Source: Pyrinomonadaceae bacterium | GTDB lineage: Bacteria > Acidobacteriota > Blastocatellia > Pyrinomonadales > Pyrinomonadaceae | Direction of reading: 5' to 3' | Assembly: GCA_035263325.1 (NCBI GenBank) | Contig: DATFRK010000966.1 | Span: forward strand, 1 to 39,089 | Length of the DNA stretch: 39,089 nt | Shown: one piece after another, positions 1-22,269 of the stretch | How the letters are laid out: every line of letters starts with the position of its first letter | How positions within the stretch are numbered: position 1 is the first letter of the stretch | Notes under the pieces: generated by a model | Seen by the model: the letters and a program-made list of their open reading frames with translations, nothing else | Databases searched by the model: none | What the model was told of the DNA's origin: nothing | Program-made: the position numbers and the translations under genes

Positions 1-203
1 CCTTTCACCAGGAAAAATCGTTTCCGCGAGAGGCCTTTGGTTGATTCACCAATTCTCCCGCGGGCTCGCAGCCGCAGCACTCCTGTCTTAGGCGCTGTGC
101 TTTGCGTCTGGGTTGCGGCGGGGATCGACAGAAAGAGAAAGACGAGCGCTATCACCATAACTAGCGCCATTCTCGAGGCTGCTTTCTCCGGGTTGCTTCT
201 CAT
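1..203 (-). CDS. Hypothetical secreted protein, N-terminal fragment (gene continues beyond left edge)
   Basis: Absent from the ORF track because no stop lies in the window. Minus-strand ATG at 203 (alternative ATG at 170). 67 codons are open to the window edge: MRSNPEKAASRMALVMVIALVFLFLSIPAATQTQSTAPKTGVLRLRARGRIGESTKGLSRKRFFLVK. It has a hydrophobic signal-peptide-like core. It starts 7 nt after the stop of the 211..2331 gene on the same strand. Confidence 0.45.
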   Translation of the reverse strand, partial: MRSNPEKAASRMALVMVIALVFLFLSIPAATQTQSTAPKTGVLRLRARGRIGESTKGLSRKRFFLVK

Positions 204-210
204 TCGTAGC

Positions 211-2331
211 TCACAGGTTCGGGCTTCGCGGAAACTTCAAAAACGGGAGCCGCACGCCACGCACAAAAACTTGATCGGAGCGTATTGCCGGAGCAGGAGA
301 AAAACCATTTCCACCGGCTGCGGCGATCAGATCATCCTGGTCCACGCCGTCGCCACTGATGCCAATCGCTCCCACCAGCACTCCGTTCTTGTAAAGCGGA
401 ACACTGCCGGGAAAAATCTGCAGACCATTTGGCAAGTTCGGAATGGAAGTACAGGGCATCGGAGTCCCGCCTAGAGTGGCCAGCAGGTTTGCCTTGGTCA
501 CATCAAGTTGCAGGCCAACGTTGAAGACACTCCATTCGCTCAGTGGGGTACTGAATGGCCCAGCCTGGGTATTGTCGATGCCATCAGGGAAGAATGGCCG
601 GTGCAAAAAGCCGCCCGCCCGATCAGTGAAGGCCACTGAACCATTGAGTTGCAAACCATCAGCAGCAGCGCGGTCGACATAGGAACCAAAACCGGCGCCG
701 CGCAATAGAGTCGCAGCATTAGCATTTGAGTAAAAAGCTGCCGTTCGCGCCTTCTGCACTGCCACATCGAAACCAAACACTGGCGCGTCTTGCTGGCGAA
801 ACACACCAAGCACTTTGCCCTCAGCATCAACCACGGCGATCGTAACTCGTGCATTACTGCCTAGGGGTTGCCGGATCGCGGCTCGAGTGATGTTTGCTTG
901 TTGGGCGGCGTGCGCGATGATGGTCTGCACGTCAGTTGCACTCAACGCGTTTGCTGTGGCCGGAGAGCTGCCGGCGACAAAAGGAAAGAAGCGTGTATCG
1001 ACTTCCCCGGCGATGCCACCAACTGTCGCAGGTATAAAAGCGGACGTTGGTGGAGTAACAAAAGTTATCGAACCAACGCCGGGCAAGCTGCCGAATGGAA
1101 TCGTGGCGGGCGCCGGTGGATTGGCGACGTTGGAATACGCCAGACGTATACCATCGACTAGTATGTTGTCTCCCTTGATCAAAGCAGGCGCCTCAAAGCC
1201 TCGTACGCCTGAGGCGGCGATCAACTCCTCAAACGGTTGATCGAAGTCGGCCGGATCGCGATCTACCGTGTAGAGTCCGTCACCTTCGACGCCTATGCCT
1301 CCGGCAGCCACTCCGTTGCGATAGATGGGCAAACCACCAGGATCGGCGGAGAGGCCGACAGGTAGCGCTGGCTTCTTGATGTCGCTGCAGGGAAGAGAAG
1401 AGAACTGCACGCCATAAAGCGGGCCACTGGAGCGAAAACTGATGCCTGGCGGGAAGTGTTCCTGAACGATAAAACCGGCAGTGCGAGTCGTAAAAGCGTT
1501 GCCGCCAGTGCTGAAAAAAGCCGCCGTCCCGGCCTTTGAGGTAGCGGCTAGTAACGAAGGCACCACCTGTCCTTCGAGGCCGCGTCCCACTGTGCCGACG
1601 CTACGAATAGATGTCGTGGTTGGTGCACCCGTCATAGTGAACGTTCCCAGCACGTTGCCCTCTTTGTCAGTAACAACAACGGTAACGTTACGTCCCATTT
1701 GTGCTGCGGCAGAAACTGCCTGGGCAATGATCGTCTGAACATCACTGGGAGTCAGTGTGGTCGTGGGAATAGTTGGTCCAGGCGCCGGTTGCAAACCAGG
1801 GTTACCCGGCGTGGGCAACGCATCGACGGCATCGGGTGGTCCACCGCCGACGTGGCCAATGCCGACACGTACCCGATTGCTGGCGACGTTGTGATACTTG
1901 ATTCCCACCAGCACATCGCCGAGATCTGCCATCTCATCGTTAAGACGCAGGACAATTGAAGAAGCCCAGGGTTGATCTGGCACGTCGCCGACATACTCAA
2001 CCGTCAGTGGATGAACAGTGTGTTCAGCATCTTCGGCATCCGCGGTAACGAGAGCTGAAGTCTCGCCAGGCTGTAACTTCAGATTCATCGCAAACAGCAT
2101 GATGCGTGTGGAATGATCGATGCCGAAGGTCAGTTCGGAATTTGCGGCGAAGGGTTCGCGAGTGTGCGTGACTGACTCGAAAGCGATAGCTCGAGTCGAG
2201 TCTGAGTGACTGATGAGGACAGGAGCCGGTGCCTGGGCCGTAGCTTTCTGAAAACGATAGAGCGCGGCCAGAAGGAAACTCGCGCAGATAAACAACCAGA
2301 CTAGAAAGCGAATGCCTGAATTTGCGGTCAC
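211..2331 (-). CDS. Secreted or membrane-anchored protein with two tandem GlcG/HbpS-like (DUF336, haem-binding/degrading fold) domains
   Basis: 706-aa ORF with an N-terminal hydrophobic segment (IRFLVWLFICASFLLAAL). Two internally homologous modules are present: TPSDVQTIIAQAVSAAAQMGRNVTVVVTDKEGNVLGTF ... LPIYRNGVAAGGIGVEGDG, and SATDVQTIIAHAAQQAN...VTIAVVDAEGKVLGVF ... VPLYKNGVLVGAIGISGDGVDQDDLIAAAG. The second ends with the classic GlcG/DUF336 G-x-IG-[VI]-SG-x-x-x-x-D motif. Confidence 0.7.
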   Translation of the reverse strand: MTANSGIRFLVWLFICASFLLAALYRFQKATAQAPAPVLISHSDSTRAIAFESVTHTREPFAANSELTFGIDHSTRIMLFAMNLKLQPGETSALVTADAEDAEHTVHPLTVEYVGDVPDQPWASSIVLRLNDEMADLGDVLVGIKYHNVASNRVRVGIGHVGGGPPDAVDALPTPGNPGLQPAPGPTIPTTTLTPSDVQTIIAQAVSAAAQMGRNVTVVVTDKEGNVLGTFTMTGAPTTTSIRSVGTVGRGLEGQVVPSLLAATSKAGTAAFFSTGGNAFTTRTAGFIVQEHFPPGISFRSSGPLYGVQFSSLPCSDIKKPALPVGLSADPGGLPIYRNGVAAGGIGVEGDGLYTVDRDPADFDQPFEELIAASGVRGFEAPALIKGDNILVDGIRLAYSNVANPPAPATIPFGSLPGVGSITFVTPPTSAFIPATVGGIAGEVDTRFFPFVAGSSPATANALSATDVQTIIAHAAQQANITRAAIRQPLGSNARVTIAVVDAEGKVLGVFRQQDAPVFGFDVAVQKARTAAFYSNANAATLLRGAGFGSYVDRAAADGLQLNGSVAFTDRAGGFLHRPFFPDGIDNTQAGPFSTPLSEWSVFNVGLQLDVTKANLLATLGGTPMPCTSIPNLPNGLQIFPGSVPLYKNGVLVGAIGISGDGVDQDDLIAAAGGNGFSPAPAIRSDQVFVRGVRLPFLKFPRSPNL

Positions 2332-2515
2332 GGCAATTGCGGAGAGAAGTTGCGAAACGAACCCTTCAAGTCATTCCCAATGTATCACAAAGGATGCGGG
2401 ACAAAATAGATAGTTGTTTCCCAGAATTCCGTTGCCTCCCTACCACTCGTATGTTACAAGGCAAGGAAGTCGCGAATTTCGATCCTGTCTGTATCGCGAC
2501 TGATCAAGAAACAGC

Positions 2516-4573
2516 GTGAAGAGTTATCCCTTCAAAATCATAACTGTTGTTTTGTGGGTTATCTCGAGCTTTGCCTCCGCCGTGGCCCAAAGTGACGGGC
2601 ACCTCAAGGGCACGGTGAGGAATTCGAGTGGTGGCCAAGTGGCCGGAGTGGTGGTGGTTGCGACCAACCAGGTTACCAGCCAGGCCAAAGAAACGCGCAC
2701 CGCTAGTGACGGTTCTTATTCACTAAAACTTTCTCCGGGTGCGTATCGACTCACCGTTGCTCCACCAAACGTTGCTCAGTTCGATAAGGACAAGAACTAC
2801 GGCGACTTCATCATTGTTCGGGGTGACAGACTTGAGAATGTCATTGTCGATGCGGGTAAAGACATCGCAATCGATATCGTGCTGGCAAAACCCGAAGAGG
2901 TACAGATCCCGGCGACGCCTCAGCGCCGCGAGACGCCGGACCGCTGGCGCATCGAGTTTCCCGAGTACGATCGCTACGGAGATCGTGGTGCACGAGGTCG
3001 AGACATTCCCTTCAAACGCGGTCGTTGGTGGAATCCCTACAATCAAAGCGTTCTCAAAGGAGACTATCCAATCAAGGGCGACAAGCTCTTCATGATCTTG
3101 TCTGCCGTTAGCACGACGCCGGTCGAACAAAGACGCGCGCCAACGCCATCGGATGTTAGCAGTGTGGATCCATTGAGTGCGGAATTCTTTGGCCGGCCCG
3201 AACAATTCGCGACCAGCGAAACTTTGCAGGTTAGTTTTGAACTGTTTCATGGTGACACCACCTTCAAGCCGCGCGACTGGGCCATCAAGGTTTCCCCAAC
3301 TTTCAGCATTCCTAACTATCTGAACGCGCGGGAAAACGGGGTGGTGAATATCGATGTCCGACGCGGGACGAATCGCACTGACTGGCATGCCTCATTGGAA
3401 GAGGCGTTTGCTGAAGTAAAACTCGCGGACATTAATGCGAACTATGACTTCGTCTCTGTTAGAGCCGGCATTCAACCTTTTGTGTCTGACTTTCGCGGTT
3501 TCATCTTCTCCGACAACAACCTGGGAGCGCGCGTCTTCGGAGCAGGTGACAACAATCGCATTCAGTTCAACGCGGCGTATTTCTCAATGCTCGAGAAGGA
3601 CACCAATAGTGGTTTGAACCGCTTCGACACGCGTCACCAGAATGTCTATATCGGGAATATCTTTCGCCAGGATTTTATTCGTAAAGGCTATACCATCCAG
3701 GGAAGTTTTCATTACAACGACGATCGACCGAGCATCGAGTTTGATCGTAACGGATTTCTGGTGCGTCCGGCGCTTATCGGTGATGTTCGTCCGCACGCGG
3801 TTAAGGTTGGCTACCTCGGTTTTAGCGGTGACGGTCATCTTGGGCGATTGAATCTCTCGCACTCGTACTACTACGCCTTTGGGCACGATGAGCGTAATCC
3901 GATCGCTGGTCGCCGGATCGATGTCCGGTCAAACATGGCAGCAGCCGAAGCGTCAGTGGACCGGGATTATCTTCGCTTTAAGGGCTCTTTCTTTTGGGCC
4001 CAGGGCGACAGCAATCCCACGGACGACAAGGGGACCGGTTTTGATGCGATCTTCGACGATCCTAATTTTGCCGGCGGGCAGTTTTCTTTCTGGGTGCGCA
4101 ACGGCATTCGTTTGACTCAAACTGGAGTTGGGCTGGTCCAGCCGAACAGTTTGTTGCCAAGTTTGCGCAGCAGCAAGACTCAGGGCCAGGCGAACTTTGT
4201 GAATCCGGGGTTATTTCTCTACAACGCCGGCGTGGATATCGAACTAACGCAGCGTATCAAGGCCGTCGTCAATGTAAACTACCTGAGGTTTCATCGAACG
4301 GAGCCGTTGGAGTACATCCTCTTTCAAAATGCTATTCGCCACGAGATTGGCTGGGACTACAGTTTAGGAGTGGCTTATCGTCCATTTCTCATTAACAACG
4401 TGACCCTGACGTTTGGTGCGGCGAGTTTGCAGACGGGCCGAGGCTTTCGTGACATCTTTACCGACAAGTCGCGAAACTGCCCGCCGAACGTCGGAGATTT
4501 TTGCGAGCCGGCGGTAATTGGTCCAAACAAGATGTTGTATTCGTTGTTTGGCCAATTGAAGTTGGTGTTCTAG
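2516..4573 (+). CDS. Outer-membrane beta-barrel protein with N-terminal carboxypeptidase-regulatory-like (CarboxypepD_reg) domain
   Basis: GTG start. Signal peptide MKSYPFKIITVVLWVISSFASAVAQ. Residues ~27-125 fit the CarboxypepD_reg pattern (GTVRNSSGGQVAGVVVVATN...TASDGSYSLKLSPGAYRLTV). The remaining ~550 aa have a beta-strand-like alternating aromatic/hydrophobic pattern with G/N/D turns and a C-terminal ...GQLKLVF ending in Phe, as in BAM substrates. I recognise no TonB box or plug. Barrel subfamily is uncertain (alginate-export/porin-like). Confidence 0.7.
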   Translation: MKSYPFKIITVVLWVISSFASAVAQSDGHLKGTVRNSSGGQVAGVVVVATNQVTSQAKETRTASDGSYSLKLSPGAYRLTVAPPNVAQFDKDKNYGDFIIVRGDRLENVIVDAGKDIAIDIVLAKPEEVQIPATPQRRETPDRWRIEFPEYDRYGDRGARGRDIPFKRGRWWNPYNQSVLKGDYPIKGDKLFMILSAVSTTPVEQRRAPTPSDVSSVDPLSAEFFGRPEQFATSETLQVSFELFHGDTTFKPRDWAIKVSPTFSIPNYLNARENGVVNIDVRRGTNRTDWHASLEEAFAEVKLADINANYDFVSVRAGIQPFVSDFRGFIFSDNNLGARVFGAGDNNRIQFNAAYFSMLEKDTNSGLNRFDTRHQNVYIGNIFRQDFIRKGYTIQGSFHYNDDRPSIEFDRNGFLVRPALIGDVRPHAVKVGYLGFSGDGHLGRLNLSHSYYYAFGHDERNPIAGRRIDVRSNMAAAEASVDRDYLRFKGSFFWAQGDSNPTDDKGTGFDAIFDDPNFAGGQFSFWVRNGIRLTQTGVGLVQPNSLLPSLRSSKTQGQANFVNPGLFLYNAGVDIELTQRIKAVVNVNYLRFHRTEPLEYILFQNAIRHEIGWDYSLGVAYRPFLINNVTLTFGAASLQTGRGFRDIFTDKSRNCPPNVGDFCEPAVIGPNKMLYSLFGQLKLVF

Positions 4574-4593
4574 TTGTAAGACGTCGTCAAATC

Positions 4594-5103
4594 TTCACCA
4601 CGGAGACACAAAGAACACGGAGGGGGCACAGAGAAACAAACAAGAAATCAATAGTCAGAAAAGGAGAAGCTTATGGATCCTCACCTAAATGAGCTGACAC
4701 ATGAAATCATTGGCAGCGCAATTGAAGTTCACCGACATCTGGGACCAGGACTACTCGAGTCCGCTTATCGACTGTGTCTTTGTCGAGAATTATCTCTTCG
4801 AGGATTCAGTTTCAATCACGAGCACTGGCTTCCGGTTGACTACAAAGGTCTAGAGTTGCCATGCACGTACAAGGTGGACATCGTGGTTGAGAAACTGGTG
4901 GTGGTTGAGTGCGAAGCGGTTGAAGCGTTGCAGCCGATTCACGACGCCCAACTCTTAACCTATCTTCGGATCGGCGGCTGGAGACTGGGACTACTAATCA
5001 ATTTCAACGTGGTAGTTCTAAAGAATGGTATCCGCCGCAAGATAATGGGGTACGACAACTAATCTCTGTGTAACCTCCGTGCTCTTTGTGTCTCTGTGGT
5101 GAA
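4594..5103. mobile_element. Inverted-repeat-bounded GxxExxY gene cassette (candidate miniature insertion, no transposase)
   Basis: The left arm 4594..4633 (ttcaccacggagacacaaagaacacggagggggcacagag) and the reverse complement of 5064..5103 (ttcaccacagagacacaaagagcacggaggttacacagag) are identical at 35 of 40 positions. They bracket a single 129-aa gene and fill almost the whole spacer between the barrel gene stop (4573) and the cytochrome start (5128). Confidence 0.6.
4673..5062 (+). CDS. GxxExxY family protein (PD-(D/E)XK nuclease-like superfamily)
   Basis: 129 aa. The N-terminus LTHEIIGSAIEVHRHLGPGLLESAYRLCLCRELSLRG contains the eponymous G-x-x-E-x-x-Y (GLLESAY). It is followed by VDIVVEKLVVVECEAV and QLLTYLRIGGWRLGLLINF, typical of this family. 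GGAG lies 7 nt upstream of the ATG. Confidence 0.85.
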   Translation: MDPHLNELTHEIIGSAIEVHRHLGPGLLESAYRLCLCRELSLRGFSFNHEHWLPVDYKGLELPCTYKVDIVVEKLVVVECEAVEALQPIHDAQLLTYLRIGGWRLGLLINFNVVVLKNGIRRKIMGYDN

Positions 5104-5127
5104 AATTTTAGTTGCCCTAAAGTCATC

Positions 5128-8100
5128 ATGATGATGCGAGCGATCAAATTTGTTCTGGCGGTATTAACTAGTGCGACTGTAATTGGCGCCATATCAGCGT
5201 CATCACCGCCTTCAAACACGGTCACCGAAGAATCAACACTCTTCAGAAATCAGACACCGGCGCCCGCCAAGCTCGAAGGGTGTGTCTCCTGTCACGGGCT
5301 GATCGAGCCGATGCATAAGTACGGCACCACCGACACCCTCGACAAGCTCAAAGACGGCAAAGATGCCGTGGGCTTAAGTTGCACCGCCTGCCACGGCGGC
5401 AACCCATTACCCAGTAAAACCAGTGAAGACCCGAAAGAAATCGAACGCGTCAAGCGCGAGGCGCACGTCAAGGCGCGCTTTCCCAATGAATGGCTGCGGA
5501 ACGGGCGCGCCACCGGAGCCAATCCCGAACGAACGAATACACTTCTTGCTCGTGAAAGTTGGGAGTACGTCCGCTTCATCAATCCTGGTGACTTGCGTGT
5601 CGCCGCTAAAACTTGCGGCGGCGGCGCCTGTCACGACCTCGAATCCAAGAATGTTGCTCGCAGCATGATGACCCACGGCGCCATGCTCTGGGGTGCGGCA
5701 CTCTACAACAACGGCAGTTTCCATCTTAAAGATCCACGCTTCGGAGAAAGTTACAACGAAGCGGGCGCGCCGCAGACCCTGCTGCAAGCTACGACCGAAG
5801 AACAACGGCGCGCCAAGGGCATGTTGAGCCTCCTCGACCCGATTCCACGCTGGGAGATTTCGCAGCCTGGTAACGTGCTCCGTGTGTTCGAACGAGGTGG
5901 CAAACGTCGACTCGAAGTAGGTCTGCCTGATAAGGAAGAAGACCCGGGTAAGCCCGACAAGGGCCTGAGCGCCCGCGGCTTCGGCAGCGCGCAACGCACC
6001 GATCCGGTCTTCCTGGGATTGCAGAAGACGCGTTTGTTAGATCCAACCCTCAATTTCCTGGGTACCAATGATCACCCAGGCGATTATCGTTCGTCGGGTT
6101 GTGCCGCCTGTCACGTGATCTATGCCAACGATCACGATCCTGCGCACTCAGCATCCTATGCGCAGGCCGGAAATCTCGGTCGTTCGCAAACAGCCGATGT
6201 AAACATTCCTAAAGATGAGTCGGGCCATCCAATCAAACATCAATTCACCAGTCAGATCCCTTCGTCGCAGTGCATGGTCTGTCACATGCACCCGGGCACA
6301 AACATGGTCGCGAGTTATCTTGGTCTAACCTGGTGGGACAATGAATCAGACGGCAGCAAACTCTATCCCACGAAGCAACACAACCCCAGCCAGGACGAGG
6401 AACAGGAGAAACTGGATCGCAATCCGGAAGCGTCCAGCCTGCGCGGCCTGTGGTCAGACTTTGATTTTCTTGCCAAGACCGGAACACCAGATTTCAACGC
6501 CCTGCTGCGCAACACGCAATTTGCCGATTCGCACGGGCACGGTTGGCTCTTTCGCAAAGTTTTCAAACGCGATCGTAAGGGCAACCTCCTCGACGCCCAG
6601 GGAAATATAGTTTCCGCCGACGATCCCAACAAATTTAGCAAGGCAGTGCACCTAGACGACATCCATCTCGAAAAAGGGATGCACTGCGTCGATTGTCACT
6701 TCCGCCAGGACTCGCACGGCGATGGCAATCTCTACAATGAACCGCGCGCGGCGATCGAGGTCTCCTGTGAAGACTGTCACGGTTCAATTCGCCAGAAGGC
6801 GACGCTGTTTACTTCGGGCCCCGCTGCTGCATTGACGACGGGCAGTGCGGCTGAACGACGGAAGACGCAAAAACAACCTCTCCTCGGCCAGGATATGACC
6901 CGGATTCGCGTCCGGGATGAAACGGGCTCGGCGATCCCGCTCTTTCAAAGAATCACTCGCGACCGCAAACGCAAAGATGAAAAAGGGGCCGACATCGATC
7001 TTAAAGTCGGCGACGTTGTCCAGAACTCGATGGTTGTGCCTGGCCGTTGGTGGCGCGTGGTGCAAACTCTCGACACGATCACACCCAACAGTCGCGACTT
7101 CAGTGAGAAGTCGCGCTACGCGAAAACAATCCGCAAAGACAACGCTACCTTCGGCGATGTTCCGGCCGACAACAACCTGTTGGCCCATAGGGACTCGGAC
7201 ATGACCTGTGTCTCATGTCATTCGTCCTGGATGACCAGTTGCTTTGGTTGTCACTTGTCGATGCAGGCGAACCGGAAGATGCCCAACAGGCACAACGAAG
7301 GCGGCAACTCACGCAACTTCACCCAGTACAACTTCCAGGTCTTGCGTGATGACGTGTTCATGTTGGGACGTGACGGTACCGTGACCGGCAATCGAGTGGC
7401 GCCGGTGCGCTCTTCGTCCGCCATTTTGGTTAGCTCGCAGAATCAGAATCGCGAGTGGATCTATTCACAACAGCAGACAACTTCTGCCGAGGGTTTTGCC
7501 GGCCAAACATTCAACACCCATGTGCCACATACGGTAAGGGCGAAGGAAACAAAAGCTTGTAGCGACTGTCACGTGTCGGAGAAGAACGACAACAATGCCT
7601 GGCTGGCCCAGTTGCTGTTGCAGGGCACAAACTTCGTTAACTTCATGGGTCGTTATGTTTATGTTGCAGCCGCCGATGCCCTGGAAGTTGTAGTTGCAAC
7701 GGAGCCGACCGAGCCGCAAGCAGTTTTTGGCAGCACCCTGCAGAAGATTGCCTACCCAACGAACTATGAGGAGTTTGTCCGTGGTGGCAGCGAACTGAAG
7801 ACTGCTTACGAGCACAGCGGCAATCCACGCGTGCTCCAGGTGCAGTTGCGCGGCGAGTACGCGTACGTGGCCGCAGGCGAAGGCGGGTTGCGTGTTTACG
7901 ATGTCGCGCAGATCGATCAGAAAGGCTTTTCTGAAAGAATAACCACGGCTCCCGTGTCGCGCTTTGGTCAGAAGTTTTGGGTGAAGACTAAGTATGCGAC
8001 TGCTGTGGCGGCGCCAACCACCCTGGCGGTGGATCCGGCCCGTTGGCGCGTAAAGGCTGATGGGACAATGATTGATCCGGTCAGTGCAGCACGTCTAAAC

Positions 8101-9063
8101 GGGGCAGCGCGGCGGCAGTTAGTGAATGAAGAGCAACCAATTCACCCGCTTTACGCCTATCTCTATGTTGTCGACAAGTATGAAGGATTGATCGTCGTCA
8201 ATGCGGCGACTCTACTCGATGGCGATCCACTCAACAACTATCTGAAACGCGCGCTGGACGGACAAAGGTATGCGCGCGGTGCGTTCAATCCAGCTGGGGC
8301 GCTCAATGATGCAAATAACATCACCATCGCAGGCACTCACGCGTACATCACCACCGCGAGTGCGCTGGTAGTAGTCGATATTAATGATCCGTTGAATCCG
8401 CGCATCGTAAGCAAGGTTGAGTTGAAGCATCCCCGTTCGCTGGCCATCCAGTTTCGTTACGGTTTCGTGGTAGATGACGAAGGGCTCAAGGTACTCGATT
8501 TAACAATGCCCGAACGTGCGCAATTGGTGAATGGCGCTGGCGTCGCACTGGCAGATGCGCACGACGTCTATGTCGCTCGCACTTATGCGTATGTGGCCAA
8601 TGGCAAAGAGGGGATTGCGATTATCGATGTGGAGCAACCCGAGCATCCGCGGTTGGACCAGAGCTACAACGCCGAGGGAAAACTGAGCGATGTGCATCAA
8701 GTGAAGGTGGCGATGACGAATGCGAGTTTGTTCGCGTACGTCGCGGACGGAAAGAATGGGTTGCGCGTCTTGCAGCTGACGTCGCCGGAAACGACGCCGG
8801 AGTACGCGGGCTTCAGCCCTCGGCCCCGGCCCGTTCTGATCGCGACTTATAAAACTAAGGGAGAGGCGCTTGCGATTTCCAAGCCGCTGGATCGTGATCG
8901 GGCGGTTGATGAGAGTGGTAACCAGGTTTCGGTGTTTGGCCGCCGTGGCGCTCGCCCATTCACGCTGGAAGAGATGATGCGGATGCTGCGTACCAATGAT
9001 GGTACTGGCTCCTGGTTCCGGGTGAGCGACGAACCGTCACGGACGACTTCAAGCTTGCGCTGA
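5128..9063 (+). CDS. Secreted multihaem (about 10 haem) c-type cytochrome with C-terminal LVIVD-repeat beta-propeller
   Basis: The ORF track starts at 5086, inside the right inverted repeat. I prefer ATG 5128 ([24 protein letters not shown], signal peptide). There are nine in-frame CXXCH motifs at 5281, 5380, 6100, 6271, 6685, 6766, 7207, 7240 and 7558, plus a CX4CH (CGGGACH) at 5614..5634. The C-terminal region 7855..8790 carries six repeats of the type YAYVAxGxxGLxVxD. Confidence 0.85.
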
Positions 9064-9064: not shown

Positions 9065-9153
9065 ATCCACAGATTACGCAGACCGCACTGAAATAAAGAG
9101 AGGTAAACAACAGCAGTACATAGGCTAAGAAGAAATCTGCGTAATCCGCGGAT
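9065..9153. repeat. Intergenic hairpin element, ATCCRCRGATTACGCAGA family
   Basis: 9065..9083 (atccacagattacgcagac) and the reverse complement of 9135..9153 (atccgcggattacgcagat) match at 16 of 19 positions, with a 51-nt loop. The element lies between the cytochrome stop and the amidohydrolase start, and the right arm overlaps ATG 9152. Confidence 0.6.
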
Positions 9154-10426
9154 GGTTTCGTCTAAAACTATGCGTCAAAGTACTTACTATAAAGCGATCA
9201 TTCTAATCGCCCTGATAGACATCAGCATTTTCATAACGAGTAACGCGCAGCAGCGAAACACACCCAAAGCAAAACGCGTCGTGATTGCCGCCAGTACCGT
9301 ACTGGATGGCAAAGGTAACGTGCTCCGAAACACCCGCATCGTGATTGAGGGAGCGAAGATCGTCGCCATTGATCCAAAGGCTGGGCCAGTGGACTACGAC
9401 CTGCGTGGTCTAACTGTCATGCCAGGGTGGATCGACGCTCACGCGCACATTACCTGGAGCTTTGGCAAAGATGGCAAGAATGCGGGCCCCGGAGAGACCA
9501 CCCAGGACGCAGCCTATAGCGCGGCGGCGAATGCCTGGGCCACGTTGTTGGCCGGCTTCACTACGATACAAAGCCCGGGTTCACCAACCGACATTCCCTT
9601 GCGCGAGTCAATCGCGAAGGGCCTGTTACCAGGCCCACGGATCTTGACCTCGGCGCAACCCCTGCAGGGACGGGGTGAGCAGACCGGTACGCCTGATGAG
9701 ATTCGTGCCTTTATCAGAAAGCAAAAGGAAGCAGGCGCGAATTTAATTAAGATCTTTGCCTCGCAAAGCATCCGGCAGGGTGGCGGCATGACTCTCTCGC
9801 AAGAACAATTGAATGCTGCCTGCGATGAGGCGAAAAAATTGCGACTGCGCACATTGGTACATGCTTACAAGAATGCGGTGCGTGCGGCGACCATTGCCGG
9901 CTGCACGCAGGTTGAGCATGGCACCCTCGCGACAGACGACGATTTGAAACTCATGGCCCAGAAGGGAACTTATCTCGATCCGCAGGCGGGGCTGGTTATC
10001 GAAAACTACCTGCTGAACAAGGACAAGTATCTCGGTACTCCTGGATACACGGAAGAAGGCTTCGCCGCGATGGAGAAAATCTTGCCGCTGAACCATGAAC
10101 TGGTGCAGCGGGCGTCAAAAATTCCCGGACTGAAAATCGTCTTTGGTACAGACGCAGTTGCAGGATCGCACGGTCGCAATGCAGAGGAGTTTATCGATCG
10201 CGTGAAAGACGGAGGCGTAGCTCCGCTGACGGCGATGATCTCCGCCAATTCGCTGGCGGCCGAGGCGATGGGCCTGTCGGATCAGATTGGCTCTATCGCT
10301 CGTGGTCTTCAGGCCGACATCATCGCCCTCGACGGTGATCCTTTGAAAGACATCACCGCCGTCCGTCGCGTCACCTTTGTGATGAAGGGTGGTGTGGTCT
10401 ACAAGGACGCCCGGCCCTCGCGCTAA
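9152..10426 (+). CDS. Secreted metal-dependent amidohydrolase family protein
   Basis: 424 aa with a hydrophobic N-terminus (YYKAIILIALIDISIFITSNAQQ). Contains the GWIDAHAH metal-binding HxH motif, later HAY...VEHG and FGTDA motifs, and the C-terminal ADIIALDGDPL pattern typical of the amidohydrolase fold. The start could instead be ATG 9170. Confidence 0.8.
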   Translation: MVSSKTMRQSTYYKAIILIALIDISIFITSNAQQRNTPKAKRVVIAASTVLDGKGNVLRNTRIVIEGAKIVAIDPKAGPVDYDLRGLTVMPGWIDAHAHITWSFGKDGKNAGPGETTQDAAYSAAANAWATLLAGFTTIQSPGSPTDIPLRESIAKGLLPGPRILTSAQPLQGRGEQTGTPDEIRAFIRKQKEAGANLIKIFASQSIRQGGGMTLSQEQLNAACDEAKKLRLRTLVHAYKNAVRAATIAGCTQVEHGTLATDDDLKLMAQKGTYLDPQAGLVIENYLLNKDKYLGTPGYTEEGFAAMEKILPLNHELVQRASKIPGLKIVFGTDAVAGSHGRNAEEFIDRVKDGGVAPLTAMISANSLAAEAMGLSDQIGSIARGLQADIIALDGDPLKDITAVRRVTFVMKGGVVYKDARPSR

Positions 10427-10456
10427 CCCAAGGGTAGAAAAACAAAGCCTTCAAAC

Positions 10457-10490
10457 AAAATACCCCCAACTGCCGTTGGGGGTATTTTTC
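10457..10490 (+). terminator. Rho-independent terminator
   Basis: Perfect 10-bp stem atacccccaa (10460..10469) / ttgggggtat (10476..10485) with a 6-nt loop, followed by tttt. It lies 31 nt after the amidohydrolase stop. Confidence 0.75.
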
Positions 10491-10551
10491 TTGACCCGCG
10501 GTCAATTATTGCGGTAAATTACTTGGCATCGCAAAGTACTAGACGCTAAAC

Positions 10552-11289
10552 ATGAATATCTTCAAGCATTTGTCTTCGGCCCCTCTTCCCTCTCTGGGTT
10601 TCATCTTACTAATCGGTCTGGCTGGTCTCGCCTGGTCGTACTTCTGCCTGCGTTTCGCCGGCTATCTCAGGTGCCACCGTAATCTTCGCAGCGGCTATAC
10701 CCGGAAGACGTTTCACCTCCTCATTTTCATTACCGTCGCAGTGCTGCAACTCCGCTGGGGTCTCTTTGCCGTTTGTGTGTTCGGCGCCATGACCACGTTT
10801 GTCATCGCTTACGCACTGCTACGCGGGGTGGGCCATCCGCTTTACGAAGCCATCGCCCGTGAATCCGATCGACCGCATCGCACCTATTACATAGTAATTC
10901 CTTATCTCGCGACCCTTATCGGCGGCATCGCCAGCAATCTTTTCTTCGGACCTTTAGCACTGGTTGGCTATTTAGTTGGTGGGATTGGCGACGCCGCGGG
11001 CGAGCCGGTGGGAACAAGATGGGGCAAGCATCAGTATAAGGTTTTATGGTTGGGACGAAAGGCGGGCACCAAGAGCCTCGAAGGCTCAGCCGCGATCCTG
11101 TTTGCTTCGTTGCTGGGGCTGCTTCTCGCCCTGGCAATTCATCGACAGTTGAACTGGCAATCACTCATTCCGATTGTTTTGATTGCCTGCATCTGTACGG
11201 TGATTGAGGCCGCGTCGCCGCGGGGCTGGGACAACACGCCGATGCAGTTTGTCCCTACGTTCCTGGCGTTCTTGTTACTGCCGCGTTGA
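10552..11289 (+). CDS. Integral membrane protein, cytidylyltransferase / polyprenol (dolichol, phytol) kinase-like superfamily
   Basis: 245 aa with multiple hydrophobic helices. The C-terminal region GGIGDAAGEPVGTRWGKH...GTKSLEGSAA resembles the conserved nucleotide-binding loop of the CdsA/dolichol kinase/phytol kinase superfamily. The exact activity cannot be assigned. Confidence 0.5.
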   Translation: MNIFKHLSSAPLPSLGFILLIGLAGLAWSYFCLRFAGYLRCHRNLRSGYTRKTFHLLIFITVAVLQLRWGLFAVCVFGAMTTFVIAYALLRGVGHPLYEAIARESDRPHRTYYIVIPYLATLIGGIASNLFFGPLALVGYLVGGIGDAAGEPVGTRWGKHQYKVLWLGRKAGTKSLEGSAAILFASLLGLLLALAIHRQLNWQSLIPIVLIACICTVIEAASPRGWDNTPMQFVPTFLAFLLLPR

Positions 11290-11317
11290 AGAACTTCAAG
11301 TTGAAGAGGTCACTGTG

Positions 11318-11992
11318 ATGCTCAGATCTTTGCTGCGATCGACGGACGTCAAGAGAGTCGTGATAATCAGCGCGCTTGTACTTTGGTGCTGCTGCATGAT
11401 CGCTGTCCGAGTTCATCGCTCTGGTTCAAGCTATTACCTGTTCCTGGTTTGGAACCTGTTTCTGGCGGGTATCCCCTTGGTCCTCAGCACGGTGTTACGC
11501 GCCCTGGTTCATCTGCGCGCACGCCTGGTCTGGCAGCTTAGTTGTCTTGTTTTGTGGCTGCTGTTTCTGCCAAATGCGCCTTACATTCTCACCGACCTGC
11601 AACATCTCAAGTATTCAACTACTACTGTGCCAGCCTGGTATGACGTAGCGCTGCTCATCTCCTGCGCCGGCACGGGTTTACTGTTGGGCTATTTGTCGTT
11701 AGTCGATGTGCAGGAACTTGTGGCCCGGAAGTTCGGTTCTGTATCCGGTTGGTTGTTTGCACTTACGTCGTTGGTGTTGGCTGGCTTTGCTCTCTACCTC
11801 GGACGCTTCCTTCGCTGGAACAGTTGGGATCTGCTCATCAGGCCGGGCAGGTTTCTTGATATAGGAGGCGCACTGTTGCACCCCTTTCACCTCACCCAGC
11901 CTTTATCCGTTACTTTCATCTTCGGCACCATCCTGGCACTTGGATATATCGCCATTCGTGTTTTGCTGGTGAAGCGAGTGGAGTCAACATAG
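11318..11992 (+). CDS. DUF1361-like integral membrane protein
   Basis: The ORF-track start 11204 overlaps the previous gene by 86 nt. ATG 11318 (MLRSLLRSTDVKRVVIISALVLW) is more plausible. Motifs WNLFLAGIP, LPNAPYILTDLQHL and RWNSWD match my recollection of DUF1361. Confidence 0.6.
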   Translation: MLRSLLRSTDVKRVVIISALVLWCCCMIAVRVHRSGSSYYLFLVWNLFLAGIPLVLSTVLRALVHLRARLVWQLSCLVLWLLFLPNAPYILTDLQHLKYSTTTVPAWYDVALLISCAGTGLLLGYLSLVDVQELVARKFGSVSGWLFALTSLVLAGFALYLGRFLRWNSWDLLIRPGRFLDIGGALLHPFHLTQPLSVTFIFGTILALGYIAIRVLLVKRVEST

Positions 11993-12097
11993 AGAGCCGC
12001 GAGTGGTAGCGAGCGGATGCTTCGGTCAACTTTAAAGAGCAGTGACTAGCTTCAAGTTGGCCGTGGCCGCCGGTCGCTACCCCTCACGGTTCTCTAT
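11989..12097. repeat. REP-like palindromic element, ATAGAGA...GGTAGCGA...GGATG family (copy 1)
   Basis: The arm 11992..12016 (gagagccgcgagtggtagcgagcgg) pairs with 12070..12094, whose reverse complement is gagaaccgtgaggggtagcgaccgg. The outer ends are atagaga/tctctat. The stop codon of the DUF1361 gene (11990..11992) lies inside the element end. Confidence 0.65.
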
Positions 12098-12112
12098 TGC
12101 TTATCCTAAGGC

Positions 12113-12574
12113 GTGGCTGAAACTCTGATCGGAATCATCTCTGACACGCATGGGCTGGTGCGGCCGGAAGCCATTGCTGCCCTCCAGGGTGTGGATCTGA
12201 TCCTGCACGCCGGTGACATTGGCAACCAGGACGTCCTCGATACTCTCCGGCAGATTGCCCCAGTCGTCGCCGTTCGCGGCAACAACGACAAAGGCGAATG
12301 GGCCAATGATCTGCCTGATTGGGAAGTTACGGAAGTTGGCCCAGTCTCCATTTACATGTTGCATAACCTGAATGAGATGGATGTTCGCCCCAGTGGCATT
12401 TTTCAGGTGGTGGTCAGCGGCCACTCTCATCAACCGTCAGTGGAAGAACGCAAAGGTGTTCTATACGTGAATCCCGGCAGCGCCGGCCCCAGAAGATTCA
12501 CCCTGCCGGTGACGGTCGCACATCTGAAGGTAGAAGGTGAAAATGTCGCCGCGCATCTAATCGAGCTTCTCTGA
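12113..12574 (+). CDS. YfcE/MJ0936-type metallophosphoesterase
   Basis: GTG start, 153 aa. Carries the canonical calcineurin-like motifs in order: GIISDTHG, HAGDIG, RGNND, SGHSHQP, NPGSAG. Confidence 0.8.
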   Translation: MAETLIGIISDTHGLVRPEAIAALQGVDLILHAGDIGNQDVLDTLRQIAPVVAVRGNNDKGEWANDLPDWEVTEVGPVSIYMLHNLNEMDVRPSGIFQVVVSGHSHQPSVEERKGVLYVNPGSAGPRRFTLPVTVAHLKVEGENVAAHLIELL

Positions 12575-12783
12575 ACGACGCAGGACAGCGAGCGGTAGCA
12601 ATCTGTTCCTCAGTCCCCAACTGGCAGGTAGCTTGCGACCGCTTCGCGGGCAGCAATTTGCTTCCTCAGGCAACACTGTTAGTCCACTCGTTTGTTACAC
12701 ATAAACCGAATCAAAAGGAAACTTGTCCTGCTCTGTTTTGTGTTAGATGGGTTTCTCGCTGCTCGGTTCGGAAATCCGCGTAA

Positions 12784-12801
12784 TCTGTGTAATCGGTGGA
12801 T
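12784..12801. repeat. Solo copy of the ATCCRCRGATTACGCAGA-family repeat (reverse orientation)
   Basis: tctgtgtaatcggtggat matches the consensus of the right arm at 9137..9153 (tctgYgtaatcYgYggat). It is preceded by a partial atccgcgtaatc and lies directly 3' of the BlaR1-like gene stop. Confidence 0.45.
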
Positions 12802-12804
12802 GGC

Positions 12805-14748
12805 TCACTGCATTCGCTCAATCGAGGTAATCTTCATTTGGCCGTTGCTCCTGGTGCCGTGGACTTTGTAATGGACCTCTGACTCGTGCTCGGAGCCGTC
12901 GATCAGCGCATGAATGGTTCCGGCAACACTGGCAATGAATCTGCCGTTGTCTTCTGAGACGTCAAACTCGTCAAACTCGACCTTTGTAATTTGCCGGTCC
13001 TTTCGCATCGCTTCCGCAATCTCCTCCGCCTTATTACGCATTGTTCCATCAGCCATCACGCCCTGGTAATCATCGTCCAGCACGCGCTCGAAGAATGATG
13101 CGTCGTGACGCATCGAGGCGTAAGCCAGCTCGCGCAACAAGGTAAACACCGATTCGCCGCCCTTGTGACTGGTGAGCGATTTATCCTCGACCGCCATATC
13201 CAGTGGCGATGGCGGGGGAGGTGGTGGCGGGGCTTCAGCAGTGACCTGACGAAGTTGCTCAGAAAGGGACGAGAGATCCCAGTTGGGATGCTCCGAACGG
13301 TAGATGTTATACCTGACTGCCCCCGCGAAGAGTTTCTTACCGTCAGTACCTTCACTTTCCTCAGTCGCCAGAGCCTTGATGCGCCGCAGCGCCCGCAGTC
13401 GATACTCCGCATTGGTGTCGGCTGAGGCAATCTGGATGAGCGGCTCCATCTCACTGTTACTGGCAAACTTGTCAATCAGCATTATCTTTACTTCAGGGTC
13501 GTTGGTTTGCTGGTAGAGCTCGACCATGGCGGGACTACTGCCGTCGCCTTCTAACTCAGTGAGTCGCACAGCCGCCAGCCGGCGCAACTCAGCGTCTGGA
13601 TTCTTCAAGGCCATGTCGATCAATTCGGCGAAGGCTTTGTTGTCACCCAATGCTCCTACCAGGCGTAGTTCCAGGCGTAGTTTGTCAGTGGGTCGATCAA
13701 TGAGTTGAGCCTGGCCGGACTTCAGGCCGCCGATGGGAATCAACAGCCAGGCGACCACGGCAATCAAGCCGGCAAACAGACTCACCATTTTCCAATGACG
13801 CGCACCAGCGCGGACGCGATCGAAATTCAGAATCATTTCAATTCTCCTTTCCAACGAGCGTTTGGAGGTAAAAAAGGCGAGCTGATGATCGGCTTGGAGC
13901 AGCAAACGCCGCTCAGCCACCTTTAGGAGACCATCAGCATAATTTTCCGGGAGCGCACCCCGCCCGACAACGCGTTCATCACACGCCAGTTCACGTTCAA
14001 GACTTAACTGGCGACAGGCATAGCGGACCAGGGGATGAAAAAAGAAGACGATTTGTAGCGCGGTTTGAAAGTAGTTGACGACCGTATCGAGTCGCTCGAG
14101 ATGAGCGAGCTCGTGCTGAATCATGGCCCTGCGTTCGTCGACGGTGGTCCATTCGGCAATGTCGTGCGGTAGCAGAATTACCGGACGAATGAGGCCGTGG
14201 AGCAAGGGACAATGGACTTGCTTTGTCAGTCGCAGATCAATCTGACAACTCTCTGCTTCGAGATTCAACTGAGCGAGTGTGACCCTTTGGGCGCGGCGCT
14301 TGATTCTTCCGAACCTGATTTGAATCATTGCTACTCGCAGCGACGCAAACGCGGCCCCTACCAACCAGACAACAAATAGGACTGGCAAGGCAACAGGAAG
14401 AACGCTTGCGGGCTCAGAAAGCCGGTTGTTTGCTGGTGTTTTCTGTTTGTTTTTAACTGGCGTGGTAACAGTGGGTGCTAGCTCGATCACCGCCCGGGGC
14501 GCTTCAATTACGTAGTTCAAGGTCCTATTCGTTGGGCGGGCAAGGGATAGGTTTTGTACCAGGGGAGTTAAGAGTGGGAGAAGAGCAATCGCAATAAGAC
14601 AGAACAGCCAGGTTTGGTGTCGCACTACCGGCGCCCATATCCTCACGATCCTGAGACTGCACCAGGCAATGATTACCAGCACCAGCGCCTGCCAACTCAA
14701 AACGAGTAGTTCGATAACAAACCGATCGGCGAATGCAATTGGATTCAT
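12805..14748 (-). CDS. BlaR1/MecR1-type M56 peptidase signal transducer with non-canonical C-terminal sensor region
   Basis: 647 aa. N-terminal TM helices are followed by the zinc-metalloprotease motif HELAHLERLD (HELAH at 14101..14115). A further TM segment is followed by a helical-repeat region, a PPPPPPPSP linker (about 13208..13234) and a ~120-aa C-terminal domain. The start overlaps the BlaI-like gene stop by 4 nt (ATGA). Confidence 0.8.
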   Translation of the reverse strand: MNPIAFADRFVIELLVLSWQALVLVIIAWCSLRIVRIWAPVVRHQTWLFCLIAIALLPLLTPLVQNLSLARPTNRTLNYVIEAPRAVIELAPTVTTPVKNKQKTPANNRLSEPASVLPVALPVLFVVWLVGAAFASLRVAMIQIRFGRIKRRAQRVTLAQLNLEAESCQIDLRLTKQVHCPLLHGLIRPVILLPHDIAEWTTVDERRAMIQHELAHLERLDTVVNYFQTALQIVFFFHPLVRYACRQLSLERELACDERVVGRGALPENYADGLLKVAERRLLLQADHQLAFFTSKRSLERRIEMILNFDRVRAGARHWKMVSLFAGLIAVVAWLLIPIGGLKSGQAQLIDRPTDKLRLELRLVGALGDNKAFAELIDMALKNPDAELRRLAAVRLTELEGDGSSPAMVELYQQTNDPEVKIMLIDKFASNSEMEPLIQIASADTNAEYRLRALRRIKALATEESEGTDGKKLFAGAVRYNIYRSEHPNWDLSSLSEQLRQVTAEAPPPPPPPSPLDMAVEDKSLTSHKGGESVFTLLRELAYASMRHDASFFERVLDDDYQGVMADGTMRNKAEEIAEAMRKDRQITKVEFDEFDVSEDNGRFIASVAGTIHALIDGSEHESEVHYKVHGTRSNGQMKITSIERMQ

Positions 14749-15143
14749 CTCTTTTCTCCGGCGCCGGATTTCGCTTTACGCTGAGCGAGTCTCTGCCTGA
14801 TCTCACGCAAATCGTCTTCGGTGAGGTCGCCTGTTTCGACGAGGTGCAGTACGAGTGAGGCTGCGGAGCCACCGAACACCTGTTTGATCACGTGGCCGAC
14901 GACGTGGCCGCGCGATTTTGCCGGCTGCTGGCGCGCGCGGTAGATGTACGACTTGCCCTCGCTGCGGTGTGTTAGATGGCCTTTTCTCTCGAGTACCCGG
15001 ATGATAGTTAGGACGCTGTTATAGTGTCGTTCACCTGGAAGTTTGGCCTGGATCTCGCGGGCTGAGGCTTCACCCAATTCCCAGACCACGCGCATGATTT
15101 CCAGTTCTTTGTCAGTAAAGGTTTTTGAGGGTTTTCGTGGCAT
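14745..15143 (-). CDS. BlaI/MecI/CopY family winged-helix transcriptional repressor
   Basis: 132 aa. LEIMRVVWELGEASAREIQAKL...YNSVLTIIRVLERKGHLTHRSEGKSYIYRA is the typical Penicillinase_R domain. It is translationally coupled to the downstream M56 gene. Confidence 0.85.
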   Translation of the reverse strand: MPRKPSKTFTDKELEIMRVVWELGEASAREIQAKLPGERHYNSVLTIIRVLERKGHLTHRSEGKSYIYRARQQPAKSRGHVVGHVIKQVFGGSAASLVLHLVETGDLTEDDLREIRQRLAQRKAKSGAGEKR

Positions 15144-15159
15144 TTGTTTCTTTCGGTAA

Positions 15160-15179
15160 TCAACGGATAAATACGTTGA
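15160..15179 (-). promoter_or_regulatory. Candidate BlaI-family operator, proximal (TCAACG-N8-CGTTGA)
   Basis: Perfect 6+6 palindrome tcaacg gataaata cgttga, 17 nt upstream of the repressor start codon (15143). Confidence 0.55.
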
Positions 15180-15210
15180 TGCGCAGGATAATGTGTTTCC
15201 AGCGGAGTTG

Positions 15211-15230
15211 TCAACGTATTTTTACGTTGA
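15211..15230 (-). promoter_or_regulatory. Candidate BlaI-family operator, distal (TCAACG-N8-CGTTGA), overlapping a TTGACA -35-like hexamer
   Basis: Perfect palindrome tcaacg tattttta cgttga. Its centre is 51 bp from the proximal site. On the minus strand it overlaps TTGACA (15214..15209), with a weak -10-like CATTAT at 15193..15188 (15-nt spacing, so the promoter call is weak). Confidence 0.5.
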
Positions 15231-15257
15231 CGAGGTTTTTCTCGGTGGAGAGTATCC

Positions 15258-16262: not shown

Positions 16263-16404
16263 CGTTATCAGTTAACATCTGCATGGCATAAGCCGTCAAT
16301 TTCTTGTCGCCCACGGTCAACTCAAGACTGAATAGAATGGCGTACTCGCGGTGTCTAGCAATTGTCCAAGGGTTTTGAGCTTCTATTATTGAAGGAGTGA
16401 ACCC

Positions 16405-18222: not shown

Positions 18223-18312
18223 GCGAAGCCGTGTGCATTCGTGCAGGAACTGTGAAAGTGAACCGCCGTTTCAAACTAATGAATATTAGCGGATGGCCCC
18301 TCGTTCTTGTTC

Positions 18313-22219: not shown

Positions 22220-22269
22220 CGTGAGTAATTGGCGGTGAATAATAAACGGTCGGAGTGGCGTCGCCAAGT

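Follow-up and report, generated by a model that had tools for sequence, protein, structure and literature searches.

We analysed a 39,089-nucleotide stretch of DNA (the window) from a Pyrinomonadaceae bacterium (assembly GCA_035263325.1, contig DATFRK010000966.1, positions 1 to 39,089), in which a gene for a predicted outer-membrane barrel protein is followed by a gene for a large cytochrome with ten haem motifs and a C-terminal beta-propeller. The closest protein matches, at 80-90% identity, were named Pyrinomonadaceae (Acidobacteriota, class Blastocatellia), and near-identical sequence was found among sequencing runs in soil metagenome DNA runs only. An earlier interpretation, made from the letters of the window alone (the sequence-only reading), had proposed that these two genes and a divergent gene for a GlcG/HbpS-like protein could form an envelope redox or haem-handling module. 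Its map of open reading frames (ORFs), with the 184-bp divergent region, two GlcG/HbpS domains, the CarboxypepD_reg domain of the barrel protein, and ten haems plus propeller in the cytochrome, was reproduced in full. The second secreted protein that it had placed downstream of the GlcG gene is real, has a leader, and runs out of the window. Direct reading of the sequence shows a Sec-type leader at the N-terminus of each of the three complete proteins. The features of this region are as follows:

1..203, minus strand: 5' part (67 codons) of the gene for a secreted protein of ~260 amino acids, cut by the window edge (translation; homology to a gene in loci L001 and L002)
211..2331, minus strand: tandem-GlcG protein, 706 amino acids (ORF list; PF03928)
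2332..2515: divergent intergenic region of 184 bp, common to both units (ORF coordinates)
2516..4573, plus strand: barrel protein, 685 amino acids (ORF list; PF13620)
4589..5108, plus strand: GxxExxY/PDDEXK_3 cassette (family scans; inverted repeat)
5128..9063, plus strand: cytochrome-propeller, 1311 amino acids from 5128, or 1325 from 5086 (ORF list)
5128..7644, plus strand: signal peptide and ten-haem domain of the cytochrome (motif scan)
7645..9063, plus strand: LVIVD-repeat beta-propeller, the C-terminal domain of the cytochrome, with an approximate boundary (PF08309)

We compared the barrel-cytochrome pair across genomes and metagenomes by scanning in both directions. In the forward scan, a diverse alignment of the haem domain was searched against species-representative genomes and gave at least 594 relatives, of which the best 80 loci were compared. 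These 80 loci span the Pyrinomonadaceae, other Blastocatellia, Terriglobia, Bryobacterales, Acidoferrales and a few oddly labelled bins. Seventy of them were genome loci with at least 2.3 kb of DNA upstream, and homologues there were called by tblastn with the window proteins. The barrel gene was directly upstream of the cytochrome gene and on the same strand at all 70 loci (barrel identity 41-94%). In the reverse scan, the barrel was used as the query in metagenomes, and the cytochrome followed it in 63 of the 67 loci that had at least 600 bp downstream; all four misses had less than 1 kb of downstream DNA. Because both scan directions agree, we regard the pair as an obligate two-gene unit, and the counts rule out chance adjacency. 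Conservation of this neighbourhood had been proposed in the sequence-only reading as a check, and for the barrel-cytochrome pair the outcome was decisively positive. At loci with no GxxExxY insert, the gap between the two genes ranged from -6 to about 300 bp and was often between -6 and about 60 bp. Relatives of the cytochrome amount to at least 7,672 clusters at 90% identity, and for the haem domain 528 clusters at 50% identity had E ≤ 1e-30. Pfam and NCBIfam annotate the barrel-cytochrome module with generic domains only.

The complete module was also seen at L076, L081, L059, L041 and L047, which are labelled Phycisphaerales, 'delta proteobacterium', Dormiibacterota, Heliomicrobium and Heliobacteriaceae. 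These labels reflect either mis-binned or mis-named contigs of metagenome-assembled genomes, or transfer outside the Acidobacteriota.

In the window, the interval between the two genes (4573-5128) had been treated as an empty gap. It in fact holds a gene (4673..5062, plus strand) for a 129-amino-acid GxxExxY/PDDEXK_3 protein of the PD-(D/E)XK type (133.5 bits), bracketed by a 46-nt inverted repeat with arms at 4589-4634 and 5063-5108 (CACCACGGAGACACAAAGAACACGGAGG-type); the whole sits 20 bp upstream of the cytochrome start. Of the 82 loci used for the neighbour-family comparison, 7 (the window and six genome loci) have a GxxExxY gene here, all of them among the Pyrinomonadaceae, of which only some have it. 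The repeats recur around the gene in L003, L004, L008 and L037, a remnant alone is left in L001, and the contig of the closest relative has a shorter PDDEXK_3 ORF at the cassette site; most lineages have no insert between barrel and cytochrome. The segment 4589-5108 looks like a small insertion cassette within the operon, and the GxxExxY gene is probably outside the barrel-cytochrome system. A promoter and terminator scan of 2200-5300 gave no promoter-like site, and terminator-like sites at chance level. There was no sigma-70-type consensus in the divergent region 2332..2515, although this consensus is uninformative for the phylum.

The ten haem motifs of the cytochrome, nine CxxCH and one CGGGACH (Cx4CH), start at 5281, 5380, 5614, 6100, 6271, 6685, 6766, 7207, 7240 and 7558. 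In an alignment of 16 relatives of 40-55% identity all ten are kept, nine of them invariant and the first in at least 90%, and 11 further His residues are conserved. With these 11 non-motif His, all ten haems could be bis-His ligated, which makes it likely that the protein serves electron transfer alone; the haem pattern likely suits electron transfer and not catalysis. Pfam models of cytochromes c3 and c7 also match the protein. The C-terminal part belongs to the LVIVD family (PF08309; 63.4 bits against a gathering score of 20.2, in two stretches), and there is a weak match to choice-of-anchor-B. This propeller is kept full-length in the relatives of 40-55% identity, in whose alignment it has no conserved His or Cys. 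From 96 diverse sequences we obtained a usable AlphaFold2 (AF2) model of residues 1-860, with a mean predicted local distance difference test score (pLDDT) of 74 and a predicted template modelling score of 0.78. It shows large non-haem inserts in the haem domain and a beta-rich subdomain at about residues 590-780. Foldseek comparison of this haem domain with the PDB gave no match at E < 3 (best E 3.1), and a PDB search with the single cytochrome sequence also found none. A profile search of the PDB brought up only weak matches, to NrfB (E 2e-4) and to the haem region at the C-terminus of NrfA (E 6e-3). Membership of the ExtM family was rejected, as the NCBIfam match is a local one over a 49-residue di-haem motif (65.6 bits against a cut-off of 800); a match to an octahaem NCBIfam model was also below threshold (15.4 against 375 bits).

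Several of these properties could suit an enzyme. The cytochrome-propeller might be a periplasmic oxidoreductase that acts on a soluble or polymeric substrate passing through an AlgE-like barrel, with the other cytochromes of the cluster feeding it electrons. The large non-haem inserts and the beta-rich subdomain, a low haem density, the lack of a lipobox, the weak profile similarity to NrfA and NrfB and the local match to ExtM, from a selenite/tellurite-reduction operon, are in keeping with such a role. However, the 11 conserved non-motif His cover the ten bis-His haems and leave no obvious open catalytic haem, the propeller offers no conserved His or Cys, and the matches to enzyme families are far under their cut-offs. 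We consider this explanation unlikely.

The barrel protein has a signal peptide, an N-terminal CarboxypepD_reg domain and a long C-terminal part that ends in ...KLVF. The CarboxypepD_reg domain is a beta-sandwich at residues 30-123 (window 2603-2884; PF13620, 48.8 bits). The last residue is F or Y in every homologue, and outer-membrane barrels end in such a C-terminal aromatic residue. Neither Pfam nor NCBIfam matched the ~555 residues after the CarboxypepD_reg domain at a threshold as loose as E ≤ 10, and searches of the PDB with the single sequence and two profiles recovered no chain at E ≤ 10, including MtrB (6R2Q) and AlgE. Pfam gave no signature of Plug, TonB_dep_Rec, MtrB_PioB (at E ≤ 0.01 over the whole protein or E ≤ 10 over the barrel region), POTRA, usher, Slam or other secretion families in the barrel, and the window barrel translation contains no CxxCH. 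That the barrel might be a TonB-type receptor had been named in the sequence-only reading as an outcome that would count against its proposal. We rejected this candidate, since no Plug or TonB_dep_Rec domain was found on the barrel even at E ≤ 10. Known CarboxypepD_reg-headed TonB receptors are roughly 1000 amino acids or more in length, and the 685-amino-acid barrel looks too short to be one.

A survey of 57 diverse barrel homologues gave the only link to a known barrel family. Six of them matched Alginate_exp (PF13372; best E 3.3e-9), one of which, from L076, was above the cut-off (34.9 bits against a gathering score of 25.2); the window member and the other 51 (of 57) had no match, and other Pfam families appeared only as single chance matches. 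From these six matches the family looks like a distant branch of the AlgE-like barrels, and the window protein like a distant relative of the AlgE-type Alginate_exp family. The contact with Alginate_exp, a family of polymer-export barrels, is a further point in favour of a substrate channel serving an oxidoreductase. An AF2 model of the barrel protein from 28 homologues (78-94% identity) had a pLDDT of 37 and was confident for the N-terminal domain alone, and mean-field direct coupling analysis of 305 barrel sequences (effective number of sequences 36-88) gave noise with no hairpin pattern. Because neither was informative for the barrel, the strand count, another check proposed in the sequence-only reading, comes from an amphipathicity scan, manual reading and DSSP assignments on the low-confidence AF2 model. 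Our estimate is roughly 18-22 strands, at low confidence.

Between the N-terminal domain and the barrel is a linker rich in Arg and aromatic residues (DRWRIEFPEYDRYGDRGARGRDIPFKRGRWWNPYNQSVLKGDYPI; residues 142-185, window 2939-3070). Close homologues show hardly any variation in it. In the diverse set, which includes the tetrahaem-fused variants described below, roughly one third of the positions are kept (R143, W144, P149, R153, P174, K181-D183 and P185). The linker might act as a plug or latch, or be used for docking.

The N-terminal periplasmic module of the barrel varies by lineage, being CarboxypepD_reg, a tetrahaem domain, or none that is recognisable. In 39 relatives of the barrel (4 genome and 35 metagenome loci), the CarboxypepD_reg domain is replaced by a cytochrome c3-type domain with four CxxCH motifs. 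The four genome loci (L065, L067, L068 and L071) are from different orders, and in L071 the N-terminus of the barrel protein was identified by Pfam as a class III cytochrome c. The 35 metagenome fusions are complete ORFs of 40-88% identity, which argues that the fusion is not an assembly artefact. The lineages with the fusion also encode a free paralogue of the tetrahaem domain just after the large cytochrome, and the fused domain has a weak homologue in the free 4-haem protein found in the Pyrinomonadaceae cluster (phmmer E 1e-7). That a haem domain has been gained repeatedly at the periplasmic end makes most sense for a barrel engaged in electron transfer, and it is hard to reconcile with a simple substrate channel.

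The fusions also bear on a third explanation, in which the barrel mainly serves to place or anchor the cytochrome-propeller on the cell surface and electrons arrive otherwise or by a diffusible shuttle. The pairing is strict and cargo-like with the barrel gene first, the N-terminal periplasmic domain of the barrel differs between lineages, and in many lineages the cytochrome has a low-complexity tether rich in P, A, T and Q behind its leader, all of which would fit export or anchoring. LVIVD repeats have in addition been described as cell-surface repeats (preprint 10.1101/2022.05.06.490989). This explanation is set back by the absence of POTRA, usher, Slam or any other secretion signature in the barrel, and a haem domain fused to the barrel implies that the barrel handles electrons directly. 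It also overlaps with a conduit; MtrB of the Mtr system serves both roles. We think it quite improbable that placement on the surface is the main task of the barrel.

The pair does not stand alone. In two orthologous contigs (L001 and L002) and in the closest relative (90% identity, with the same right flank), the minus-strand operon continues leftwards beyond what corresponds to the window edge. The order of genes is tandem-GlcG, the ~260-amino-acid secreted protein, a 9-haem cytochrome (350-360 amino acids), a second 9-haem cytochrome (292-299 amino acids) and a 4-haem cytochrome (175-191 amino acids). The first 9-haem protein matches the model of MtrC/MtrF domain II/IV (49.9 bits). Beyond the 4-haem gene are genes for an inner-membrane protein with an FHA domain, a transmembrane (TM) helix and seven haems (FHA-TM-7-haem), and for a membrane Fe-S protein with a cNMP-binding domain. 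By synteny, the 9-, 9- and 4-haem genes and the FHA and Fe-S genes are most likely just to the left of window position 1. The sequence-only reading had set the locus apart from porin-cytochrome systems by its 'single large cytochrome'. Since the cluster runs off the left edge, this description holds inside the window only and is an artefact of where the window ends; orthologous loci add the 9-, 9- and 4-haem cytochromes and the FHA-anchored 7-haem cytochrome.

Other lineages have different parts in the corresponding clusters. Terriglobia-type loci (L058:13869-20447; also L051, L075 and L046) combine the pair with a 10-haem cytochrome of 460-490 amino acids, a membrane subunit with at least 4 TM helices, a fused NuoE/NuoF-like flavoprotein, and a NuoG-like Fe-S protein with three cNMP-binding domains. 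In L071 (17304-20501) and L067 (18286-21222) a single polypeptide unites a cytoplasmic FHA domain, one TM helix followed by seven haem c motifs and another helix, a 4Fe-4S ferredoxin domain and an FAD/NAD(P) oxidoreductase domain; the second helix was mapped in L071 only, where the seven haems are between both helices. Pyrinomonadaceae have only the FHA-TM-7-haem part of this fusion. The L071/L067 fusion would be a link from cytoplasmic NAD(P)H to periplasmic haems in one protein, and the parts found in the Terriglobia-type loci and in L071 and L067 are those expected for a path from a cytoplasmic reductant to the outer membrane.

The reading we prefer, to which we give a probability of roughly 0.6, is that 2516..4573 and 5128..9063 encode a two-part outer-membrane electron-transfer module that is conserved as an operon across the Acidobacteriota. 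The envelope redox module suggested by the sequence-only reading finds good support in comparative evidence, including the tetrahaem-barrel fusions and the surrounding multihaem and Fe-S genes. From the gene and domain content, the conservation and the fusions at these loci, we infer complex formation, localisation, electron flow and stoichiometry of the module. The pair would be the outer end of a larger redox cluster that spans the envelope. Electrons would depart from cytoplasmic or inner-membrane Fe-S and flavin proteins and would cross the periplasm on the 9-haem cytochromes. The small tetrahaem cytochrome would then dock at the periplasmic N-terminal side of the barrel, where it is fused in many lineages, and pass electrons to the decahaem cytochrome, which would be held at or in the barrel. 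The propeller might anchor the cytochrome or contact an external partner such as mineral Fe or Mn, humic matter or another cell. The path is drawn outward here, and electrons might flow either way.

Several observations weigh against this electron-transfer module. The barrel in the window carries CarboxypepD_reg and not a haem domain, so the argument from the fusions is indirect for this locus. The fold and width of the window barrel are poorly predicted (AF2 pLDDT 37), and an 18-strand AlgE-like barrel may be too narrow for a cytochrome. Neither protein of the window pair matches the MtrB_PioB, DmsE/MtrA or OmcA/MtrC families. The haem density of the cytochrome is low, at about one per 83 amino acids, and no consistent lipobox was found in any lineage compared; judged by its sequence, the large cytochrome could be periplasmic or enzymatic. 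Our run search found no RNA sequencing runs holding the window sequence. Cultured Pyrinomonadaceae are described as aerobes, which suggests no obvious physiological partner.

The divergent gene encodes a protein with two domains of the HbpS-like family (PF03928, DUF336), with a score of 86.6 bits against a cut-off of 25 in three matched stretches. Sequence matches in the PDB were to EfgA, PduO-type proteins and HbpS and were in two regions, at about residues 157-236 and 480-677, consistent with two DUF336 domains. We divide the protein as follows:

~residues 35-185, window 1777-2229, minus strand: variable N-terminal domain
~residues 190-440, window 1012-1764, minus strand: first GlcG/HbpS-like domain
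~residues 465-706, window 214-939, minus strand: second GlcG/HbpS-like domain

Of the 50 homologues compared, 88-95% have the two GlcG domains and 64% have the N-terminal one. Each DUF336 domain has one conserved Cys within a similar 'P-C-S/T' insert (n=50): C315 (window 1387-1389; at least 95%) and C627 (window 451-453; at least 85%). The two may form an inter-domain disulfide, or may belong to a cofactor or metal site.

The GlcG gene is less tightly tied to the pair. Of 59 loci, 38 have it divergent and adjacent, 11 have it at another place within 10 kb, and 10 lack it. The association proposed in the sequence-only reading therefore stands for most loci, and the absences make the gene accessory and not core. 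The tandem-GlcG protein may bind a cofactor, haem or metal, or may protect the conduit.

The GlcG/HbpS-like domains raise the haem-handling alternative. In this view the GlcG protein would bind haem, break it down or sequester iron, import would be through the barrel, and the whole would serve haem/iron homeostasis or stress sensing as in the Streptomyces HbpS-SenS-SenR system. The HbpS-like assignment itself speaks for such a function, as HbpS is an extracellular octamer that binds and degrades haem and binds Fe(II) (PMC3754957). The neighbourhood does not. Genes for haem or iron uptake, TonB or plug proteins, an ABC importer and haem oxygenase were absent from all 82 neighbourhoods, as were SenS and SenR, and the conserved neighbour families included no histidine kinase or response regulator. 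The partners that are conserved are multihaem and Fe-S proteins, and the GlcG gene can be missing while the barrel and cytochrome are never separate. The protein also has no D/ExxE motif in either GlcG domain, the sole one being EDAE at residue 100 in the variable N-terminal domain, so no counterpart of the internal ExxE iron site of HbpS is evident. Its leader is Sec-type, with no twin-arginine (Tat) motif. We regard haem or iron handling as very improbable. The three-component HbpS-SenS-SenR system was rejected as a model for the same lack of SenS/SenR, Tat leader and internal ExxE site, and the comparison with an HbpS-type sensor survives at the domain level only. Relative to HbpS of Streptomyces reticuli, EfgA and the PduO C-terminal domain, the window protein is alike in being secreted and in having the DUF336 signature. 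It differs in that a single 706-residue chain holds two DUF336 domains with long inserts and an additional N-terminal domain, and, for HbpS, in its leader and its lack of a SenS/SenR partner.

We compared the module with known systems for electron transfer across the outer membrane. Porin-cytochrome clusters are known in Shewanella, Geobacter and several phyla (Shi et al. 2014, PMC4245776), and their generic definition combines a porin-like gene with genes for periplasmic and outer-membrane multihaem cytochromes (PMC4245776). Here the barrel and cytochrome genes are clustered and the cluster holds more secreted multihaem cytochromes, with cytochrome locations predicted from sequence. The likeness to MtrCAB of Shewanella and the OmbB-OmaB-OmcB porin-cytochrome complex (Pcc) of Geobacter is in the clustering of a barrel gene with multihaem cytochromes predicted in and beyond the periplasm, in the extra inner-membrane and periplasmic cytochromes of the same cluster (PMC4245776), and in the 9-haem neighbour of relatives that matches the MtrC/MtrF model. 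However, the window pair has no PDB sequence match to MtrB or MtrA, and the partner is one 1311-amino-acid decahaem-propeller fusion with no lipobox. Window-type barrels are headed by CarboxypepD_reg or a tetrahaem domain and lean towards Alginate_exp. The sequence-only reading had already set the N-terminal domain apart from Mtr and Pcc porins, and the confirmed CarboxypepD_reg domain and missing MtrB_PioB match bear this out.

In Cyc2, from iron oxidisers, a cytochrome and a porin are fused (Keffer et al. 2021, PMC8406198). The 39 relatives with an N-terminal c-type cytochrome fused to the barrel share its design principle, but the fused domain has four haems here and one in Cyc2. The barrel is also larger, is always followed by a decahaem-propeller gene and has no detectable sequence similarity to any characterised family. 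The window barrel itself, headed by CarboxypepD_reg and without haems, is not of the Cyc2 type. As for the AlgE-type PF13372 barrels, the six homologues that match the model are the likeness; the window member differs in having neither this match nor a PDB sequence match to AlgE, and the conserved core contains no genes for synthesis of alginate or another polymer.

Within the phylum, porin-cytochrome clusters have been proposed for marine Acidobacteriota (10.1101/2020.10.01.322446), and two systems, EET1 and EET2, have been described from peat Acidobacteriota (Fiorito et al., bioRxiv 2026, 10.64898/2026.05.27.727921). EET1 has, besides its porin, a 13-haem OmcE-like cytochrome and an NHL/DUF5128 propeller that is a protein of its own, and EET2 consists of MtrC-like and DmsE-like proteins, an MtrB-like porin and a TsdA-like 4-haem protein (10.64898/2026.05.27.727921). 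Both resemble our cluster in pairing a porin with multihaem cytochromes in synteny, and EET1 has a beta-propeller component. In contrast, the propeller here belongs to the LVIVD type and shares one chain with a decahaem domain that does not resemble OmcE, MtrC or MtrA, the barrel carries CarboxypepD_reg, and there is a tandem-GlcG gene; the systems are set apart by their described gene content. The text and supplementary text of that preprint, as far as they were accessible, contain no mention of carboxypeptidase, LVIVD, GlcG (main text) or HbpS (supplements). We also found no description of the module in the literature on LVIVD-cytochromes, on alginate-export barrels with multihaem proteins or on electron transfer in Pyrinomonadaceae. 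By its gene and domain content, the module appears to differ from Mtr, Pcc, Cyc2 and EET1/EET2 and to be a variant not previously described.

Acidobacteriota are among the most abundant soil bacteria, and to our knowledge their extracellular redox abilities are largely unknown. If the pair is a conduit, its two genes would be usable together as a marker of extracellular electron transfer in soils, it would offer a new structural solution, with an AlgE-like barrel, tetrahaem-porin fusions and a cytochrome-propeller fusion, and it would give secreted tandem GlcG/DUF336 proteins their first functional context. A broader version of this idea, which we offer tentatively and hold to be doubtful, is a trans-envelope conduit of independent origin found throughout the Acidobacteriota. 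It would combine an AlgE-related barrel with a decahaem-propeller whose fold has no counterpart among solved structures. In some lineages cytoplasmic NAD(P)H-linked flavin and Fe-S modules would feed it directly, by way of NuoE/F-like proteins and the FHA-TM-multihaem-TM-Fer4-flavoprotein fusions, and the tandem-GlcG protein would be an extracytoplasmic component of a new kind. Were this the case, soil Acidobacteriota that are abundant and nominally aerobic would trade electrons with minerals or with organic matter.

The remaining features are at the edges of the conserved region and to its right. The ~260-amino-acid secreted protein begins MRSNPEK... with a hydrophobic leader, and its start at 203 is seven bases downstream of the GlcG gene. 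It has no Pfam match. A 259-amino-acid gene in the same position in L001 and L002 is homologous to the product of 1..203 (shared TGVLRLR...RKRFFL), and the family was found at 14 loci, 13 of them in position downstream of the GlcG gene. On the right, the conserved stretch ends at 9063, and in L001 and L002 MutS directly follows the cytochrome. In the window, about 10 kb of unrelated genes (9152-19264), an insertion common to the closest relative, separates the cytochrome from MutS (19364-22267). This segment encodes an amidohydrolase, membrane proteins including DUF1361, a BlaR1-type M56 peptidase and its repressor, an AraC regulator, an S15 peptidase and a methyltransferase. Downstream of MutS, and syntenic with L001 and L002, is a cluster for polysaccharide export and biosynthesis (23487-37722), with a LuxR-type regulator, a Wza-like Poly_export protein, a Wzz/tyrosine-kinase-like protein, ABC-2 Wzm/Wzt, an aminotransferase and glycosyltransferases.

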